Below are positions 5,580 to 58,262 of a stretch of DNA of 64,000 nucleotides, piece after piece. The stretch covers positions 2,444 to 66,443 of the forward strand of contig JBBTVY010000005.1 in the NCBI GenBank assembly GCA_038063055.1, given 5' to 3'. Made by a program: the position numbers and the translations under genes. How positions within the stretch are numbered: position 1 is the stretch's first letter; the number at the start of each line of letters is the position of its first letter. This stretch comes from Patescibacteria group bacterium (GTDB taxonomy: Bacteria > Patescibacteriota > Minisyncoccia > UBA6257 > 2-01-FULL-56-20). The notes beneath the pieces were generated by a model, which saw nothing but the letters and a program-made list of their open reading frames with translations, was not told the origin of the DNA and made no database searches.

Positions 5580-6507
5580 GGCGTTTCTTTAAAAATATTA
5601 GTACTATCAACGACAATATTATTATAATCCAAATCAAATTCTGTTTATACCAAGGCTGTGGATACCGGGGCGGCAAAACCGATATTCTTGAATTTCCCGA
5701 TTTATCCACTGCTTTAACAGTTATATCTTTATCAAGCGATTGGTATTTCAAAAGATAGGGGCTTTCGGCGACAATAAAATGGTCGGCTCCTTCTTTTACC
5801 TCATAATGGTCTATGCCGCTTCCTTTGTCTTGGGCGTTGAACGCCAAAAACCATTTCCCATCAAGAACAGATTGGTCGTTGCTTACAATCGGGGAAAACG
5901 GGTCGGGCGGAATCGTATCGGCAGGCAAGAGAAGATTGTCTGCTACGGGTGCCTCGGATATCATAAAACTAAGTGCGGAAACTTTAGTTTTTGCGGCAGT
6001 TCCGAGTCCGTCGTTTAGAAACGCTTTCACGTCTTTCATCGAAATCAGTCCGTCCGTGACCCTATCCCCTTTTACAACGAAAGAAAATAGAAATCCTTTT
6101 ATGCCATTATATCCTCCAGGTATTATGCCGGAAAAGAAAATTTCTCCGTCGCCGGAAAGATGCGGCTTTTCCACCCACAAATTGACTATGGAATTGCCGT
6201 CGTGTATTTCCTTTAAATCGAGAATGTCGTGCGGGAACACAACTTTTCCCTGAACCGCATTTATTCTCTCATAATCGGAATTGAGGAAAACGGATACTTC
6301 GAAAAGCTGTCCCACTGCTGCGGTATTGGCCAGCGATGAAAATTCAAAAGTGGCGGCCCGGGCTGTTGATAATGTGCCAGCCGCGATAGACAAAGCAAGC
6401 AAAAAAGCAACAGCAATACGCAATGTCTGTGAATTTGAAATTTTGAATCTGGAATTTGGCATAAATGATTTATAATTAGAATTCTCTAGTTTTTTTAATA
6501 AAAGCAT
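5572..6507 (-). CDS. Cohesin-like domain protein with C-terminal TM anchor, paralogue of the adjacent gene
   Basis: Signal peptide. 'ATFEFSSLANTAAVGQLFEVSVFLNSDYERINAVQGKVVFPHDILDL' parallels the N-terminus of 3459..5579. C-terminal 'LIWIIIILSLIVLIFL'. 8-nt overlap with the downstream gene. Confidence 0.55.
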   Translation of the reverse strand: MLLLKKLENSNYKSFMPNSRFKISNSQTLRIAVAFLLALSIAAGTLSTARAATFEFSSLANTAAVGQLFEVSVFLNSDYERINAVQGKVVFPHDILDLKEIHDGNSIVNLWVEKPHLSGDGEIFFSGIIPGGYNGIKGFLFSFVVKGDRVTDGLISMKDVKAFLNDGLGTAAKTKVSALSFMISEAPVADNLLLPADTIPPDPFSPIVSNDQSVLDGKWFLAFNAQDKGSGIDHYEVKEGADHFIVAESPYLLKYQSLDKDITVKAVDKSGNSRISVLPPRYPQPWYKQNLIWIIIILSLIVLIFLKKRLV

Positions 6508-6853
6508 TTAGCAACTTATGAACGACAATTGACTGCTTCGAGAGATTGTCAAAATCTTCAGAATTAATATATTTAATGTCCCGCGCTATCAAAATTTGAT
6601 TTTGTAATTCTGTCAACGAGCCATGAGATATTGAATAGAATTGGATTTTCTCTTTCGCAGAATGTCTGGAAAACCCTTCGGCAATATTGGAAGTTATAGA
6701 AACCGCTGCGCGCCTAAGCTGTGAAATCAACCCAAAAGTTTCTTCTCTTGGAAAAGATTTAGTTAAACCATAAATCATTAAAACTAGTTTATGGGATTCT
6801 CTCCATACCTCTAAATCGGTAAATGATTTTATTTTGCTAATGCTATATTCCAT
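6476..6853 (-). CDS. Four-helix-bundle protein (23S rRNA intervening-sequence protein / Avd-like family)
   Basis: 125 aa. Motif 'EVWRESHKLVLMIYGLTKSFPREETFGLISQLRRAAVSITSNIAEGFSRHS' typical of TIGR02436/PF05635. Confidence 0.7.
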   Translation of the reverse strand: MEYSISKIKSFTDLEVWRESHKLVLMIYGLTKSFPREETFGLISQLRRAAVSITSNIAEGFSRHSAKEKIQFYSISHGSLTELQNQILIARDIKYINSEDFDNLSKQSIVVHKLLNAFIKKTREF

Positions 6854-9914: not shown

Positions 9915-10274
9915 TTAGCGTTTATTTTTTAGTTTTTTAATTAAAACAAACAACATTTTTTGAATCTCTGTAAGTAAATTTCCGGCTTTTAAAACATCAA
10001 CTTCGGGGTAAATGCTTTTGATGAGAATAATTTGTGTTTCTAATTCTGCGGCCGAAGCATCTGCAACACTCAAAAATTGTAAATATTCTCCTAACCCATG
10101 CCTTTTATAGCCTTCCGCAATATTTGATGGTACAGAAACAGCCGATCGTCTTATTTGACTAACCAATCCATAAATTTCACTTTTGGGAAGTTTATTGCTT
10201 AAATCGTAAACCTCTTTTACTAATAAAATAGATTTCTTCCAAACTTCTAATTCTTTATAAGATTTTAAATACAT
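9915..10274 (-). CDS. Four-helix-bundle protein (23S rRNA IVS protein / Avd-like), second copy
   Basis: 'ELEVWKKSILLVKEVYDLSNKLPKSEIYGLVSQIRRSAVSVPSNIAEGYKRHG' matches the PF05635/TIGR02436 pattern. Confidence 0.7.
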   Translation of the reverse strand: MYLKSYKELEVWKKSILLVKEVYDLSNKLPKSEIYGLVSQIRRSAVSVPSNIAEGYKRHGLGEYLQFLSVADASAAELETQIILIKSIYPEVDVLKAGNLLTEIQKMLFVLIKKLKNKR

Positions 10275-10324: not shown

Positions 10325-13114
10325 CTAGTTACTAACACAGCTAAACGTAATCGTGTCCGCATAGACCCCGCCGGTTGCGCTTGCTCCTACTGTGGCTTTG
10401 TGGGTAACCACTACTTCCCTGTTGGTTACGGCGGCAGTTGAAGAAGCGAGAATCACCGTAGTCGTGGCAAGGCCTCCCACCGTGTTGCCGCTTTGGAGAT
10501 AGCGGATATTCAGAGTAAGCGTTCCTCCGCTCCCGGCTGTTGTCGTGGCTCCCTGAATTCCGTAACCGTCGGTATTCGCGGCAAGGGTCGCGGTGGCGTT
10601 AAAAGCGGCATCCGGCGATTTGATTAAGTAGTTGATTGTCGTGGACGCGTACAATCCCCCGCCGGTGGTACTGCTGCCGTTATCGTTGACATAAAGAACA
10701 CAGCCAAGCGCTCCGTCGCAAGACATGGAAGTCGATGCGTTGGGAGAAGAAGTGAAGATGCCAGTCGTGTCTATCGTGCCGAAATCCGTGCTCGAAGCGC
10801 TGGCGGAACAGGAAACGGTTGCAGTCGGAGTGAAAGATGCGACTGCGTAAACGGAATAAGTCGTTAAACCCGTTCCGGCGTCGCTTACTCTGAAATAATA
10901 AGTCGCCGAAGAGGCGTTGGAAGTGGACATAATTGAATATTCAACTTCGGTAAATCGGATTCCGCTCAGAAGTTCGGAGTTCGCCTGATTTCTGCTTGTG
11001 GTCGCCACAACTTCGGCGGCGTTGAAAATTATGTTTTCGTCGGTCGTTCCTCCGGTGGAAGTGGCGATGTTCGTGGTTGCCGTGCCATCGGCAACCAAAC
11101 TCGACGTGGACATTTGCCACTCTCTCGTGCCTGCGGTCGAAGTCGCCAGTTGCGTCCACGTTCCGGAAGTAGAGTTGGCCTGATATTCTATTCTGAATTG
11201 GGCCGAACTGGTGGCATCGCCCTCGTTTGAAATTTCAAAACGCAGGCGCTTGACGGTTCCGATTCCTTGTATCGACAACGAAGTGTCTTCGCTGGCCGCC
11301 GCCGTCGAGGTCGCTTCACTGCCGTCGTCGTTGCGCCAATGGTAGTGGATTTGGGTCATGTTGGCGGCAAGGATGCTGGTTTGGCCGTATATGTTATAGC
11401 TGGCGTCGTTAATGCAGCTGCTTGTGCACCGGACTGAATTGACAACACTAGCCGAGAAGCCGGCCGACGAAGTGGCTGAAAAGGACTCGCCATAAGTATT
11501 TTCTAAGGTATTCGGGAAGCTGTAACTCGTGGTCGCGTTGTTTATACCCAATTCGAGAAATTGGGCCGCGACACCGTTGCCGGAGCTGCTGTCGTCGTAT
11601 TCGCCGTCAAGCCAGGCCCATTTGGCCGTGGTTGATGAGTCGGCGAGGGTTGTATTTATGCTTGTCGTTGCAAAACTGGTTCCGACCGACATATTCGATT
11701 GCGCCAAAAAAGAAAGATAATTGTTAAGGTTGGCGTTCGCCACCGGAGAGTTCGTATGGTCATAGCTCCAAAAAAGTTTCATGCCGCGTATGCTTGTGGC
11801 GCCAGAAGTGCTGAACGCCGAACAAACTATTTTGTCGCCGCCCGTTGTGGTCGCCAAATTGGCGGCAACGTTCCAAACAGGAGTTGCGTAACCGGTGGTG
11901 TCGTTGGCGGGCGGCGTTTCGGTTATGGCGGTTGTCGTCAGGTTTGTGCAGGGCGTGCCAGGGCCGAGAGTCGCGTTCATACCCGGATTCGCGGTTGCGG
12001 TGAAATTTGTCCTGCCTAAAAGAAACGCGTTAGTTGATGAAGGAGAGGTTTCTGGAATATTTATCGTGGTAGTCGCCAGCAGCGTAGCCGTACTCGCGGT
12101 GTTGGTATTTTGCATTAGCCAAACCTGGATGTTTTTGCGGAGTTTCGAACTTGCGTTGAAATTGAAAGTGTATGTGGCGACTGCGACTGCGTTGGGGTTG
12201 CTTAAAGAATTACTACTTATACTTTGCATTTTAAAAGTGTGATTGCCGGAAGGAGAAGCATCAGCGGTTGTCGGACTATTCAACATTAAAACGCTGTAAG
12301 AATCCCCTAATTGCGCGAAAGTAGCGGCGCTTGTCGCCTCCGAATCCCATCCTACGCCGACCGTTATCGCCGTCGTAGTCGAAATCCTCGCCCTGAATTC
12401 GGCCCAAAATTGGTTCGAGGAACTCGCGCCAACGGAAAAAGTCGTTGTGGCGCCGCTTTCCGGCAAACCGAAATTGAAATTCGCCGAAGTTACCAGCGCC
12501 TTGCCCATCTGCGAGCTGGTGGCGAACACGAATCTATAGTCGGTGTTTACCTGCGTGGGGGCAAACGGGTCATAGTCATAAGTAATAATAAGTTTTGCGC
12601 TTTCCGCGGACCGCGTGGGACCGGTAATTTTCGTGGTAAATATCATCGCGTAAGTTCCGCTGGCGTTGCCGATTAACGTTTGCATGGCGCTTGTCGCGTC
12701 AAGCCGAAAAGCAATCCATCTGTTCTCGGCGCTGTCGGTCAAAGTGCTCGGACAAGTCAAACTCTGGGCGATTCCGCCCTGAACGTTCAAAGTAAATGTA
12801 CAGGCCGAAATGCTTGCGGTGCTTGGGTGCGTATTATAAGAAATATACGCCGAACGGATTGGCTGGGAGGTGGGAACCATATCCGGAAGCGCGATGACAA
12901 ACGCGTAAGTCGACGTTACTCCGTTTGCGATGGGGGTCGTGGAAATAATCGAACCGATAAAAAACTCGATTGTCTTGGTTTTTGCGGCGGCTTCGGCGAC
13001 TTGAACCTGAAGAGTTAGGTCGCGCGATTTGAAACTCGATAAAAAATCAACCGGCGCGGGAATGGCGATAGTGGAAATCAAAAGCGCTACCAGAAATTTT
13101 CTTTTGGTATTCAT
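10325..13114 (-). CDS. Giant (929 aa) secreted T/S/A-rich adhesin-like protein ending in an SCPU/Csu-pilin-like domain
   Basis: Signal peptide 'LVALLISTIAIPAP'. C-terminus 'VSCSASASSTDFGTIDTTG...GGVYADTITFSCVSN' is paralogous to the C-terminus of 9111..9776. Confidence 0.6.
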   Translation of the reverse strand: MNTKRKFLVALLISTIAIPAPVDFLSSFKSRDLTLQVQVAEAAAKTKTIEFFIGSIISTTPIANGVTSTYAFVIALPDMVPTSQPIRSAYISYNTHPSTASISACTFTLNVQGGIAQSLTCPSTLTDSAENRWIAFRLDATSAMQTLIGNASGTYAMIFTTKITGPTRSAESAKLIITYDYDPFAPTQVNTDYRFVFATSSQMGKALVTSANFNFGLPESGATTTFSVGASSSNQFWAEFRARISTTTAITVGVGWDSEATSAATFAQLGDSYSVLMLNSPTTADASPSGNHTFKMQSISSNSLSNPNAVAVATYTFNFNASSKLRKNIQVWLMQNTNTASTATLLATTTINIPETSPSSTNAFLLGRTNFTATANPGMNATLGPGTPCTNLTTTAITETPPANDTTGYATPVWNVAANLATTTGGDKIVCSAFSTSGATSIRGMKLFWSYDHTNSPVANANLNNYLSFLAQSNMSVGTSFATTSINTTLADSSTTAKWAWLDGEYDDSSSGNGVAAQFLELGINNATTSYSFPNTLENTYGESFSATSSAGFSASVVNSVRCTSSCINDASYNIYGQTSILAANMTQIHYHWRNDDGSEATSTAAASEDTSLSIQGIGTVKRLRFEISNEGDATSSAQFRIEYQANSTSGTWTQLATSTAGTREWQMSTSSLVADGTATTNIATSTGGTTDENIIFNAAEVVATTSRNQANSELLSGIRFTEVEYSIMSTSNASSATYYFRVSDAGTGLTTYSVYAVASFTPTATVSCSASASSTDFGTIDTTGIFTSSPNASTSMSCDGALGCVLYVNDNGSSTTGGGLYASTTINYLIKSPDAAFNATATLAANTDGYGIQGATTTAGSGGTLTLNIRYLQSGNTVGGLATTTVILASSTAAVTNREVVVTHKATVGASATGGVYADTITFSCVSN

Positions 13115-13236
13115 CCCGTTAGAGACAGGCCGCCTTTAGACGGCCGTAAACCAGCGGCTATAACCGCAGCATACTTTTTTGATTTGCTACAAGAATATTT
13201 CATAAATTGTCATTGCTTAGTTGTCTCTAACGGGAT
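13113..13236 (-). promoter_or_regulatory. 15-bp perfect inverted repeat with a ~94-nt loop; the 3' arm covers the RBS region and AU of the start codon of 10325..13114. Contains a mini-uORF (MNPVRDN*)
   Basis: Arms 'atcccgttagagaca' at 13113..13127 and 'tgtctctaacgggat' at 13222..13236. Confidence 0.5.
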
Positions 13237-13310
13237 TCATCACAAACAATTCGGTCATATAATTTCCCCTTGTCGGCAATTCTATTTTTTATCTGCAAAT
13301 ACGTAGAGGT

Positions 13311-13649
13311 TCATTTCTTTTTCGCCGCCGCAAGCGCGAACCAGTCGAAATATGGCATAAGTCCGTTAAGCGTGCTTCCATAGAGCTTGCCGCCATAAAC
13401 CGCGTCCCCGAAAACTTCTCTGGCTCTGGCGATTTCCCGAAGCCGCCCTTTCCATCGAGGGTCATCGAGAGTCAAATCAAAAAGTTCAAAAGCGCGCTCC
13501 GCCGCCATTTGGAAATTTTCTTCGTTTTTGCCTTGCGCCGCGGCGGCGGCGCGAAAAACTTCACTACCGATATTGCCCATTTGTTCGGCCAAAGAAAGTT
13601 TCTGCCATTTCCCCGCGGCAAGTCCGCTATGAATAAATTTTTCGTTCAT
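13311..13649 (-). CDS. Hypothetical all-alpha protein, weakly MazG/HisE-like NTP pyrophosphatase
   Basis: 112 aa; weak match to the NTP-PPase helical pattern; 4-nt overlap with the upstream gene. Confidence 0.35.
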   Translation of the reverse strand: MNEKFIHSGLAAGKWQKLSLAEQMGNIGSEVFRAAAAAQGKNEENFQMAAERAFELFDLTLDDPRWKGRLREIARAREVFGDAVYGGKLYGSTLNGLMPYFDWFALAAAKKK

Positions 13650-14032
13650 TGTTTTATCAATTTTTTTACAACTTGTCTTATTTTTTCTTTCACAGCATCG
13701 CTTTCAACGTTCCGCGACCTGTTTCCGAAAGCGGGCTTCAAATTAATCATTGAATCAAATTCAATCCGTTCATCTTCCCTGCCTTCGCCAAGGCTTCGGA
13801 GGGCAGGCGGTTTTTTGGGATAGATATTTATTCCCCAAGTATTTTCCCGTTTCGAATTTTCTTGTTCCATAAGAATCGCTTCTTCGTCTGCGTGCAATTC
13901 GCCGCCAATGGCCATAATTTCTTGAGCTATATCCACCGCCGCTTTTACAAGGTCTCCAAATCCCTCGTTCGCCATCCGGAGAAGCTCTGAAATTTCAATC
14001 GGTTTTTCTGTTTTTATTATTCTGATATCCAT
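13646..14032 (-). CDS. Hypothetical conserved protein (DUF5674-like)
   Basis: 128 aa; 'IMAIGGELHADEEAILMEQENSKRENTWGINIYP...RIEFDSMINLKPAFGNRSR' resembles a conserved uncharacterised CPR/archaeal family. Confidence 0.4.
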   Translation of the reverse strand: MDIRIIKTEKPIEISELLRMANEGFGDLVKAAVDIAQEIMAIGGELHADEEAILMEQENSKRENTWGINIYPKKPPALRSLGEGREDERIEFDSMINLKPAFGNRSRNVESDAVKEKIRQVVKKLIKQ

Positions 14033-15992: not shown

Positions 15993-16126
15993 TTCCGTTA
16001 AATTATAAACGACATTTTGCCTGCCTGCTATTATATCCCGCTTATAACTGGGAGGTTGTCTAACTCGCCCCGCCAAATATAATATGAATTGCCGCCTTTA
16101 ACATATAAGAAACTTCTGCGCATTGC

Positions 16127-16197
16127 TGCGGGATCGTCTAATGGTAGGACACCGGCCTTTGAAGCCGGGTATGATGGTTCGAATCCATCTCCCGCAG
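16127..16197 (+). tRNA. tRNA-Gln (anticodon UUG)
   Basis: Cloverleaf with U1:A72, 7-bp acceptor TGCGGGA/TCCCGCA, anticodon loop CTTTGAA, T-loop TTCGAAT, G73. CCA not encoded. Confidence 0.75.
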
Positions 16198-16357
16198 CAA
16201 TGCGCAGAAGCTCGGGGCAGGAAAAGCTACTTATCCGGATAACACTGCTTGCAGTATTTATAGTTATCGGAGTCGGGCGAGCCGACATAGAAACAACTTG
16301 GAGTGGAAGCGAAAGCGGGAGCGCCGCCTGCCTGTCGGCAGGCAGGTATCCAGAGAA

Positions 16358-37994: not shown

Positions 37995-38061
37995 AATAGT
38001 AGCATGGTCAGTTTCATAATATCCTAGAGTGGAAATGGTATCTCGATGAAAATATCGTTTG

Positions 38062-38134
38062 TGGGCCAGGAAGGACTCGAACCTTCGATCCTCAAGGTAT
38101 AAGCTTGATGCTTTAGCCGCTAAGCTACTGGCCC
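38062..38134 (-). tRNA. tRNA-Ile with UAU anticodon (reads AUA)
   Basis: Clean cloverleaf GGGCCAG/CTGGCCC, anticodon stem TCAAG/CTTGA, loop CTTATAC (U33, A37), T-loop TTCGAGT, A73. Confidence 0.7.
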
Positions 38135-42296: not shown

Positions 42297-42536
42297 TTAT
42301 AGCAAATGCTTATTTCTAAACGCTATACCAGAACCAGTTTTGAGATATGATTCAAATTCCAGCGCTTGGCTCTTTTTAGGAAAAGCGCAGAACCAAACAA
42401 GTTTAAATGGATAGCGAGCTCGAGAATATCTTTGAGTGCCGGAGTTATGCTCATCTAATCGTCTGCGCAAATCACTTGTGATGCCAGTATAATAACTCTT
42501 GTCTTTTTCGCTGCGTAAAAGATATGTAAAATACAT
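42297..42536 (-). CDS. GIY-YIG nuclease-domain small protein
   Basis: 'FTYLLRSEKDKSYYTGITSDLRRRLDEHNSG'. Confidence 0.7.
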   Translation of the reverse strand: MYFTYLLRSEKDKSYYTGITSDLRRRLDEHNSGTQRYSRARYPFKLVWFCAFPKKSQALEFESYLKTGSGIAFRNKHLL

Positions 42537-42716
42537 TATAAATATAATAAAGCCCTCCTTCGCATAAAGCTATGGAGGACTACTTCGCTACCCAAAACAC
42601 AGGCTTTTGGTGAATGTTGCTAAAGAATCATAATGTAAGCGTGTGCTTAGCACTACGAAGCTTTAGCGAAGTAGTGCGTCGGGCAGGAATCTCACTACTG
42701 ACTATGCTGCTTGAGA

Positions 42717-42804
42717 TGGTGCGTGGGGCAGGATTCGAACCTGCGTAGCCCATTGGGCGTCAGATTTACAGTCTGATGCGATTGGCCGCTCCGCCACCCA
42801 CGCA
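42717..42804 (-). tRNA. tRNA-Tyr (anticodon GUA), long variable arm, CCA encoded
   Basis: GCGTGGG/CCCACGC acceptor, anticodon loop CTGTAAA, 16-nt variable arm, T-loop TTCGAAT. Confidence 0.8.
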
Positions 42805-42813
42805 CCATCTCAA

Positions 42814-43056
42814 TCAACGGTTTATTAATTTTTTAAAGGCTTCTCCGCCTTTGTATGCTTTTATTTCTCTTTCACGCCCAACTGCCCGGGCGCGAGTTCT
42901 AAAATTCTCTGCATACACTACCTTATATGGCGTACGCGACCTTGTAAAGCGGGAATGGCCTGCGTTGTGTCTTTTTAATCTAGATTTTAAATCACTAGTA
43001 GAACCGATATAATGCGAGCCGTCTTTAAGGCTCTTAATGATATAAACAAGGTACAT
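42814..43056 (-). CDS. GIY-YIG nuclease-domain small protein (second copy)
   Basis: 'MYLVYIIKSLKDGSHYIGSTSDLKSRLKRHNAGHS'; the listed N-terminal extension runs over a tRNA-fragment repeat, so the internal start is preferred. Confidence 0.65.
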   Translation of the reverse strand: MYLVYIIKSLKDGSHYIGSTSDLKSRLKRHNAGHSRFTRSRTPYKVVYAENFRTRARAVGREREIKAYKGGEAFKKLINR

Positions 43057-43091
43057 TTCAATAGCCAATTTGGGCGTCCCGCCAGCGGCGG

Positions 43092-50625: not shown

Positions 50626-50703
50626 CTAATTTACAGATTTTTATGAATATACGAATAAAAATTTTGTTTATTTATAAAATTCGTATATTCGTACTGATTC
50701 GTA
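50626..50703. repeat. 78-bp palindromic element in the rpsH 5' UTR, identical to 53996..54073
   Basis: 'ctaatttacagatttttatgaatatacgaataaaaattttgtttatttataaaattcgtatattcgtactgattcgta' contains the inverted repeat gaatatacgaata/tattcgtatattc. Confidence 0.85.
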
Positions 50704-51772: not shown

Positions 51773-51818
51773 GTTAGTTTTTCTTAACGAACGTAAGTGA
51801 GTTTAGAAACAACTTACA

Positions 51819-51929
51819 CCCCGCACCTTTGCTGCAAAAATTCAGAATGCGACCCAAAATAAAGCGGAGCGATTCGCCTGCGGCTTTGTTTTGATTTGTT
51901 TTCATAATCTTTGCCATAAAGGTGCGGGG
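51819..51929 (-). repeat. 12-bp perfect inverted repeat with an 87-nt loop in the rplN-rplX spacer (long structured 5' UTR of rplX)
   Basis: 'ccccgcaccttt' at 51819..51830 pairs with 'aaaggtgcgggg' at 51918..51929; the 193-bp spacer is otherwise atypical in this compact operon. Confidence 0.55.
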
Positions 51930-51965
51930 TTTAGAACTTGTAATTCGCTTCGCTCATAACAATTT

Positions 51966-53995: not shown

Positions 53996-54073
53996 CTAAT
54001 TTACAGATTTTTATGAATATACGAATAAAAATTTTGTTTATTTATAAAATTCGTATATTCGTACTGATTCGTA
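53996..54073. repeat. 78-bp palindromic element in the rpsC 5' UTR, identical to 50626..50703
   Basis: Exact 78/78 match by eye. Confidence 0.85.
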
Positions 54074-58046: not shown

Positions 58047-58125
58047 AGCAGGAAACTCCTAATATTCACATGGCGAATTTGCCATGATTATTAAAACACT
58101 AGAAACTAAAAACTACAAGCGTAGA

Positions 58126-58250
58126 TTTTCGGTTTAAGAGAAGCTATCGCAGACACAAAAAGCTTGGTCTCGCGGAGCGAGTTTTTGTGTCGAGATGCAA
58201 GAATGCCCATCCGCTGGAGATGGGCAATTCTGGTTCTCTTAAACCGAAAA
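58126..58250 (-). other. Structured non-coding leader: 17-bp perfect inverted repeat enclosing two nested hairpins
   Basis: 'ttttcggtttaagagaa' at 58126..58142 pairs with 'ttctcttaaaccgaaaa' at 58234..58250. Inner stems gcccat/atgggc and gacacaaaaa/tttttgtgtc. Confidence 0.55.
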
Positions 58251-58262
58251 TTGGAGCCCCCT

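Follow-up and report, generated by a model that had tools for sequence, protein, structure and literature searches.

An inverted repeat at the start codon of a Patescibacteria surface-protein gene as the probable ends of a MITE-like relic of a small GIY-YIG nuclease cassette

Genes and features at the locus

The present work deals with a perfect 15-bp inverted repeat located at the start codon of a gene coding for a 929-residue secreted or surface protein. The repeat lies in a stretch of 64,000 nucleotides from a Patescibacteria group bacterium (GenBank assembly GCA_038063055.1, contig JBBTVY010000005.1, positions 2,444 to 66,443), hereafter called the window, whose open reading frame (ORF) content fits a genome of the Patescibacteria, or Candidate Phyla Radiation (CPR). 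An earlier note on this DNA had proposed that the repeat forms a long-range RNA stem which, together with a 7-codon upstream ORF (uORF), regulates the translation of a costly adhesin. The data reported below point to another origin: the repeat very probably corresponds to the terminal inverted repeats (TIRs) of a transposable element of the miniature inverted-repeat type (MITE), about 120 bp long, derived from a tiny GIY-YIG nuclease cassette of Patescibacteria.

The two arms of the repeat, 13113-13127 (ATCCCGTTAGAGACA) and 13222-13236 (TGTCTCTAACGGGAT), are complementary over 15/15 bp and separated by a spacer of 94 nt, and the complementarity extends beyond this core, reaching 84% over 25 nt. 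A chance origin is ruled out, as Markov-1 shuffling of the 64-kb window predicts 0.03 perfect repeats of this kind (arms of 15 bp or more, loop no longer than 300 nt), and any such repeat appeared in 4 of 200 shuffles. The start codon of the 929-aa ORF, which was indeed found directly downstream, occupies 13114-13112 on the minus strand, and its A and U fall within the stem; a segment 94 nt upstream would thereby pair with the first two bases of the AUG together with the 13 nt that precede it. Folding of the 181-nt region as RNA gives -56.9 kcal/mol (z = -4.8), with the 15-bp stem present in both the minimum free energy (MFE) and the centroid structure. The mini-ORF announced at the upstream arm is present as well (ATG AAT CCC GTT AGA GAC AAC TAA, 13240-13217 on the minus strand, 7 codons); it overlaps the 5' arm, and its stop lies one codon past it. 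Next to the 3' arm, a first hairpin contains a U-G pair on the gene strand, which corresponds to an A-C mismatch on the opposite strand. Read on the forward strand, the whole layout is ATTCAT-CCCGTTAGAGACA ... TGTCTCTAACGGG-ATTCAT, that is, a 6-bp direct repeat (ATGAAT on the gene strand) around a 120-bp segment.

A consensus scan of 12900-13500 detected no promoter-like or terminator-like site from the upstream gene to the element, and candidates picked by eye were unsupported. Rfam returned 3 tRNAs only at the gathering threshold over the whole window and nothing but snoRNA noise at E<=10 over 12950-13400, no RNA family being matched. The intergenic region is 100% identical, and in the same orientation, in four independent assemblies of the source population.

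Table 1. Coordinates of the features at the locus, numbered from the first letter of the window
Feature	Position	Strand	Remarks
Body of a probable non-autonomous MITE-like element, ~120 bp, 13-bp TIRs (CCCGTTAGAGACA)	13115..13234	-	As 15-bp inverted repeat: 13113-13236
Direct repeat ATGAAT, gene-side copy	13109..13114	-	Start codon and codon 2 of the 929-aa ORF
Direct repeat ATGAAT, upstream copy	13235..13240	-	Start of the vestigial ORF
Vestigial ORF, MNPVRDN*, 7 codons	13217..13240	-	N-terminal remnant of the GIY-YIG gene of the element (full-length: MNPVRDNQFYYVYVL...)
5' arm, gene sense AUCCCGUUAGAGACA	13222..13236	-	Encodes (N)PVRD of the nuclease in full-length elements
3' arm, gene sense UGUCUCUAACGGGAU	13113..13127	-	Takes in the first two bases (A, U) of the host AUG; codes for LSLTG plus stop in full-length elements
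Hairpin 1, 7 bp including one G-U (gene sense), loop UAAA	13128..13145	-	Abuts the 3' arm; MFE fold
Hairpin 2 (weak), GCGG..CCGC core, preceded by an A-run	13151..13174	-	Alignable with the 5' coding region of the nuclease gene, here decayed
Host gene, 929-aa secreted/surface protein, no Pfam domain	10325..13114	-	Start codon is the insertion site

A repeat family at the start codons of unrelated genes

The arms are shared by a repeat family. A scan with the pattern CCGTTAGAGACA-N79-109-TGTCTCTAACGG against one genome per prokaryotic species yielded at least 119 stretches, the window copy among them, in about 50 or more Patescibacteria genomes. The hosts of these short copies are nearly all metagenome-assembled genomes of Patescibacteria (Yanofsky-, Harrison-, Jorgensen-, Lipton-, Wolfe-, Levybacteria and others), and an assembly frequently carries several copies at different genes. 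The window copy aligns with short copies from other genomes over its full length, at 72-78% identity. Oriented by the GC hairpin that abuts one arm, the family consensus reads ATGAAT, CCCGTTAGAGACA ... TGTCTCTAACGGG, ATGAA, the arms being identical throughout this exact-arm sample.

The flanks of the arms look like a target-site duplication. The flanking hexamers co-vary (ATGGAT/ATGGAT, ATGAGT/ATGAGA, ATGCAT/ATGCAT) and, of the 130 copies with a 5' pentamer other than ATGAA, 28 repeat that pentamer identically on the 3' side, compared to a mean of 2.2 and a maximum of 8 in 2000 permutations. In the flank logos, ATGAA is conserved and nothing beyond it on either side; neither a Shine-Dalgarno nor a leaderless-promoter signal appears in these logos upstream of the 5' repeat copy, while TATAAT or TATACT is found 6-10 nt upstream in some copies. 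The resemblance between the beginning of the mini-ORF and that of the gene, both reading ATG AAT, had been taken as a sign of regulation; the similarity is real, but it arises because the ATGAAT direct repeat flanks the element.

The position relative to genes is strongly biased. An ATG directly follows the 3' arm in 170 of 225 unique copies and opens a long ORF in 145 of these 170, whereas a long ORF on the opposite strand abuts the 5' arm in only three of the 225. Gene starts represent only about 27% of the tolerated ATGAA sites (non-genic sites plus starts) over 1.58 Mb, a figure that is itself inflated by the elements. The 121 host ORFs tested match 115 Pfam families, with rplB (ribosomal protein L2), secY, ftsZ, SSB, topoisomerase, RNA polymerase and glycosyltransferases among the host genes. 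There is thus no regulon, and the element is tolerated before essential genes and within operons. Empty and filled versions of the same site were also found: neither secY (gene start ATGAACCGT) nor rplB has an element in the window, whereas secY bears a short copy in locus L131 and a long one in L218, and rplB is filled in L048, L050 and L089; L102 and L122 form a further pair. In every case, the host ORF aligns from the ATG just after the 3' arm.

Tandem copies share a hexamer: arrays of two long copies, of one long and one short, or of two short copies, with a single shared hexamer, were noticed in L220 (6082-6637), L101 (5262-5660), L127 (4380-4777), L036, L091 and L120, the last being a partial head-to-tail duplication. 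Besides, one and the same host gene (67-71% DNA identity) bears an element at its start codon in four genomes, short in L033, L034 and L039 and long in L208, which suggests that the element either was inherited vertically from long ago and decayed, or inserted more than once at one start codon. A sub-family (L021, L047, L060, L062, L115, L121, L124 and L125) has ends of the type ACCCCG...CGGGGT and flanks reading GTNAAC, not ATGAAT; it mostly lies away from start codons, in bins labelled Elusimicrobiota, Omnitrophota and others. As for viral carriage, the short and long size classes gave 0 matches in 2.9 M viral contigs. A literature search, incomplete in coverage, retrieved no description of the element or of its arm sequence.

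Full-length copies and their GIY-YIG nuclease

At some loci, the same arms were noticed about 250 nt apart, and a metagenome scan with a spacing of 235-265 nt returned 107 stretches. These long copies measure about 275-290 bp and contain a sole gene, coding for a single-domain GIY-YIG nuclease of 87-95 aa. The ORF is intact in about 100 of 115 long copies, all of them ending with ...KRFLSLTG (GMGKRYLKNRLKRFLSLTG), and its product matches the Pfam GIY-YIG family over residues 3-70 (E = 1e-17). The arms of the long copies are themselves coding, since (M)NPVRD is read from the 5' arm and LSLTG from the 3' arm, and 84 of the 115 copies have a TGA stop that overlaps the next ATG (ATGA). The nuclease ORF begins at the upstream duplicated ATG and reads through the 5' arm (MNPVRD...) in 31 of 96 long copies; the start is an internal ATG just inside the arm in the others. 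The seven residues of the mini-ORF of the window (MNPVRDN*) correspond, 7/7 in tblastn, to the first seven residues of the full-length nuclease ORF.

Related proteins are numerous. A protein search at E<=1e-10 gathered 4913 clusters, mostly of 94 or 87 aa, whose sole annotations are 'GIY-YIG nuclease family protein', 'putative endonuclease' and 'excinuclease ABC subunit C', and the nearest PDB chain is the UPF0213 protein 1zg2 (E = 4e-9). The window itself contains two small stand-alone GIY-YIG genes on the minus strand, 42297-42536 and 42814-43059 (Pfam E = 7e-19 and 2e-14), on either side of the tRNA-Tyr gene. Their products are 33-45% identical to the element nucleases (tblastn), and they lack both the CCCGTTAGAGACA arms and the LSLTG end; they could be trans-acting partners or belong to a different type of cassette.

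Conservation of the structure and relation between long and short copies

Several lines of evidence suggest that the pairing of the arms is under selection. The nuclease ends co-vary in the protein sample, whose collection did not depend on the DNA pattern, with 64 cases of PVRD/LSLTG, 6 of PVRA/LALTG, 4 of PVRN/LFLTG and 3 of PVRG/LPLTG. The commonest exception, PVRD/LFLTG (n=3), would correspond to a G-T pair on the gene strand as read from the codons. Variant arms show compensatory changes at the DNA level as well. Hairpin 1, of at least 6 bp, adjoins the 3' arm in 121 of the 127 short copies; its stem comes in 63 different sequences and displays many double (compensatory) changes in RNAalifold. 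Compensatory changes in the arms and in hairpin 1 are equally expected for a structure serving DNA mobility, and are hence compatible with a role at either the DNA or the RNA level. In the stems of short copies, 23 G-U pairs are found on the gene strand vs 9 A-C, and the outermost pair is GU in 7 cases vs AC in 1.

In the long copies, 83 of 96 possess an inner stem in which the segment abutting the 3' arm (KRFL) pairs with a segment located 70-79 nt after the 5' arm (LRKRF); this stem is perfect over 8-14 bp and occurs in 42 sequence variants. Judged from these predicted pairings, long and short forms share one topology, in which a 5' bulge of about 75 nt separates the outer from the inner stem, and the short copies are likely deletion derivatives of the long ones. 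The fate of the uORF differs among the 127 short copies: 52 have no upstream ATG, 45 have an early stop (15 of them at codon 7, as in the window), 19 stop within the 3' arm, and in 10 the uORF extends into the host ATG. Its shortest versions count 7 codons, its longest 29 or more.

The window copy as a decayed element

The window copy and its relatives display all the features by which a MITE is recognized, namely TIRs, a direct repeat, a small non-coding body, occurrence at unrelated sites with presence and absence of the element, and a longer coding relative. The coding capacity of the window copy is limited to the 7-codon stump within its 120 bp. The locus itself is thus an ordinary mobile-element relic, and we infer that the RNA stem at the AUG is a by-product of the ends of the element and not a regulator evolved for the 929-aa gene. 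The earlier proposal is, as a whole, partly supported: the physical stem stands, and the functional reading does not.

Some observations weigh against this interpretation or soften it. Only a single copy of the element is present within the 64-kb window, and both collection scans demanded perfect 12-nt arms, so that the sample behind the copy statistics is a selected one. The long interiors are matched collinearly over nt 6-75 by a profile built from the short ones, although weakly (nhmmer E of 0.006-5, with none in shuffles). The flanking repeat could stem from microhomology-guided integration instead of a staggered cut. To our knowledge, the GIY-YIG enzymes include no established transposase, and the activity of the element nuclease is a putative one. 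Finally, the bias towards start codons, together with the excess of G-U pairs on the sense strand, could point to a separate function of the structure once transcribed.

Alternative explanations

The last point leads to the alternative that fares best, that is, a MITE which has been exapted, its transcribed stem lowering or conditioning translation or mRNA stability through occlusion of the AUG or cleavage by RNase III. This explanation is compatible with the MITE relic, and we consider it possible but rather unlikely. With nothing resembling a promoter or terminator detected between the upstream gene and the element, co-transcription of both arms is plausible, copies internal to operons (rplB, secY) must be transcribed, and the sense-strand G-U excess, which the U-G pair of hairpin 1 in the window illustrates, points in the same direction. 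The element is, however, tolerated before essential and highly expressed genes, which argues that the stem is not strongly inhibitory.

Dedicated translational control, in which a long-range stem would have evolved to hide the AUG of the surface protein and the 7-codon uORF would gate its opening, is very unlikely and, as the origin of the stem, largely refuted. Although the strong predicted fold that covers the A and U of the AUG, and the overlap of the uORF with the 5' arm one codon before its stop, would suit such a device, the same arms and architecture are found at the starts of genes from 115 Pfam families, which speaks against an attenuator or riboregulator dedicated to an expensive adhesin, and no Rfam family is matched. 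The uORF is a decayed nuclease N-terminus whose length is far from constant, and an upstream ATG is missing from 52/127 short copies. Nor are the arms tied to homologous loci. The N-terminus of the 929-aa protein resembles a signal peptide and lines up with the N-termini of its homologues, which are encoded at nine loci (L006-L014) and show 47-53% identity; the arms are absent from all nine. The label 'SCPU adhesin' given to the protein could not be retained either, as Pfam shows no SCPU match for the whole protein, and none at E<=10 for its C-terminal 191 aa.

The surroundings of the gene also vary among these loci. At most of the nine homologue loci, the gene overlaps an upstream gene with a beta-lactamase fold. 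This gene of about 300 aa precedes the homologue in L006-L014, usually overlapping it, with a gene of about 540-567 aa further upstream. In its place, the window contains, at 13311-14032, a DUF5674 gene, an ORF of 112 aa and a gap of 196 nt.

Another possibility, which we regard as highly improbable, is that of an RNA-processing stem, cut by a double-strand-specific RNase so as to trim the mRNA to or near the AUG, like the stems enclosing tRNAs. The stem does end exactly at the AUG, and perfect inverted repeats surround the tRNA-Gln (21 bp) and the tRNA-Tyr (17-20 bp) of the window. Yet processing requires pairing only, whereas the arm sequence is invariant in distant genomes and coding in the long copies; the tRNA-flanking stems, moreover, share no sequence with the arms of the element, and there is no tRNA in the element segment. 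The tRNA-Gln gene (16127-16198, plus strand) lies inside a perfect 21-bp inverted repeat at 16113-16210, with 14 bp of flank pairing beyond the acceptor stem, and the tRNA-Tyr gene (42717-42803, minus strand) inside a 17-20-bp repeat at 42708-42816. In bacteria, precursor stems of this length are not usually seen around tRNAs.

The weakest candidate, a phase-variable inverton in which a recombinase would flip the 94-bp segment and switch the surface protein on or off, is barely conceivable: inverted repeats do flank a short segment directly upstream of a surface-protein gene, with an asymmetric interior (hairpins then a T-run on the plus strand), but four independent assemblies are identical in one orientation, the orientation of the family with respect to host genes is 145:3, a Pfam scan of the 30 larger ORFs of the window revealed no recombinase, 94 bp is very short for recombinase synapsis, and the direct repeat and the coding full-length relatives would be left unexplained.

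The arms were also compared by eye with the ends of known mobile elements. An integron attC site does not fit, the order of the GTTRRRY-like cores being reversed; the match to a Tn5/IS4 end (CTGTCTCT) lies at the inner and not the outer end of the arm; and the outer end begins with CCCG, not with the GGGG of a Tn3 end.

Comparison with known systems

The closest described system is that of the Ssn nucleases and the NTS repeats. In Neisseria meningitidis, the single-domain GIY-YIG enzyme SsnA (94 aa) cleaves single-stranded DNA beside NTS hairpin repeats (Chenal et al. 2025, PMC11893778). NTS repeats often lie on both sides of its gene, a layout that the authors call insertion sequence (IS)-like (PMC11893778). 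The main text of that paper does not contain the terms 'start codon', 'duplication', Patescibacteria, Candidatus or CPR, nor does it name flanking direct repeats or the ATGA overlap (PMC11893778). The likeness lies in the single-domain GIY-YIG protein of about 90-95 aa, in the bracketing of its gene by inverted repeats able to form hairpins, in the many solo repeats beside genes, and in outer ends that resemble dRS3 (ATTCCC..GGGAAT vs ATCCCG..CGGGAT). In contrast, the flanking repeats of the Patescibacteria cassettes pair across the gene and belong to its coding sequence. In addition, only one of 225 elements with flanks matches the SRM motif HGTCWYN(0-2)YYVSBRHN(0-5)WNVSBRGN(0-2)RNCYNB, in a regular-expression search that recovers NTS test sequences. 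The comparison is made at the level of sequence and, the nearest solved structure being UPF0213 1zg2, a place of the element nucleases in the Ssn clade of CDD, cd10448 (GIY-YIG_unchar_3), is putative. Taken together, the family appears to be an undescribed variant of the IS-like GIY-YIG/Ssn cassettes with an unusual start-codon behaviour.

More distant parallels can be drawn with other repeats of similar size. The Correia/CREE repeats of Neisseria, ERIC/IRU and RUP are derived from, or mobilised by, IS transposases of the DDE type and use generic targets such as TA. They resemble the present family by their length (100-150 bp), their TIRs, their short target duplications, their many gene-adjacent copies and their long RNA hairpins. 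They are not known to show start-codon precision or a bias towards the gene sense, whereas here both are found and the coding relative is a GIY-YIG nuclease. The REP/REPIN-RAYT and IS200/IS605 systems likewise combine repeats defined by structure, stems with compensatory changes, a small bracketed nuclease gene and non-autonomous hairpin derivatives. They differ by the HUH fold and chemistry, HUH enzymes forming a covalent tyrosine intermediate while GIY-YIG enzymes do not, and they are not known to make a target duplication or to target start codons.

Among the GIY-YIG genes themselves, the seg genes of phage T4 are comparable as selfish genes wedged between host genes and expressed from host signals. 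The GIY-YIG homing endonucleases, on the other hand, are larger, with separate DNA-binding domains, and spread only to a cognate allele by repair, and they are not known to have terminal inverted repeats, duplications or miniature derivatives. Finally, the locus resembles ermC-type leaders in that the stem masking the initiation region has one of its strands overlapped by a small ORF located upstream. Such attenuators are nevertheless conserved with their gene and rely on stalling peptides and alternative pairings, whereas the ORF described here is vestigial, variable and found at unrelated genes.

Proposed mechanism and implications

A model of the life cycle can be drafted from these elements. 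Insertion would proceed through a staggered cut at ATGAA, giving rise to the 5-6-bp duplication, and the empty site of the window gene before insertion would have read ...TTGTTTGTG ATGAAT ACC... For mobility, the nuclease may recognize a folded single strand made of the outer 15-bp stem and the inner stem, by analogy with the Ssn nucleases. Translation of the host gene would be maintained in the long copies by termination-reinitiation. In the short ones, ribosomes translating the stump ORF might open the stem, or initiation might simply tolerate it. The orientation bias could reflect selection, as hairpins and T-run might terminate transcription if reversed.

On this basis, it is tentatively proposed, as a possibility that we hold to be somewhat doubtful, that the cassettes constitute an unrecognised minimal autonomous element of about 290 bp. 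Its nuclease of about 90 aa, similar to Ssn and UPF0213 proteins, would be encoded by a sequence that itself folds into the two-stem hairpin to be recognized. The element would insert precisely at ATGAA start codons, take over the start and initiation signals of the host gene, hand translation back through ATGA in a way that is nearly harmless even at rplB, secY or ftsZ, and leave MITE relics behind. Should this proposal be correct, GIY-YIG would represent a new transposase chemistry in prokaryotes. The economy of such a cassette would lie in a coding sequence that doubles as terminal repeats, in the capture and re-creation of the host start, and in the coupling of translation back to the host gene. 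This would provide a mechanism by which mobile DNA is tolerated within the operons of streamlined genomes of roughly 1 Mb, and would extend the Ssn story, so far without known mobility, to clear insertion signatures.

Other consequences concern annotation. At the locus of the 929-aa gene, a tempting but wrong riboswitch-like leader is removed and the odd uORF is explained. More broadly, thousands of small CPR ORFs annotated as GIY-YIG or 'excinuclease ABC subunit C' appear to be selfish cassettes, and the family would flag a systematic source of mis-annotated start codons and small ORFs in Patescibacteria. The pairs formed by nuclease and hairpin might also serve as natural starting points for single-stranded-DNA tools.

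Other features of the window

The remaining long perfect inverted repeats of the window either enclose tRNAs or resemble terminator hairpins. Two further inverted repeats lie between genes of the ribosomal-protein region, one of 18 perfect base pairs around a 91-nt loop (58125-58251) and one of 13 bp around an 87-nt loop (51818-51930). These two repeats (58125/58234 and 51818/51918) have an element-like geometry and an unrelated sequence, and no repeat family was recovered for them in 1.7 Mb of CPR loci. In the same ribosomal-protein region, 50645-50690 and 54015-54060 carry the same 12-nt hairpin arms (GAATATACGAAT / ATTCGTATATTC) around a 22-nt loop. A tRNA-Ile gene with anticodon TAT lies at 38061-38134 on the minus strand. 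Lastly, two genes of the 23S_rRNA_IVP / bAvd-like four-helix-bundle type, 9915-10274 and 6476-6853 on the minus strand, are each located just downstream of a large surface-protein gene.

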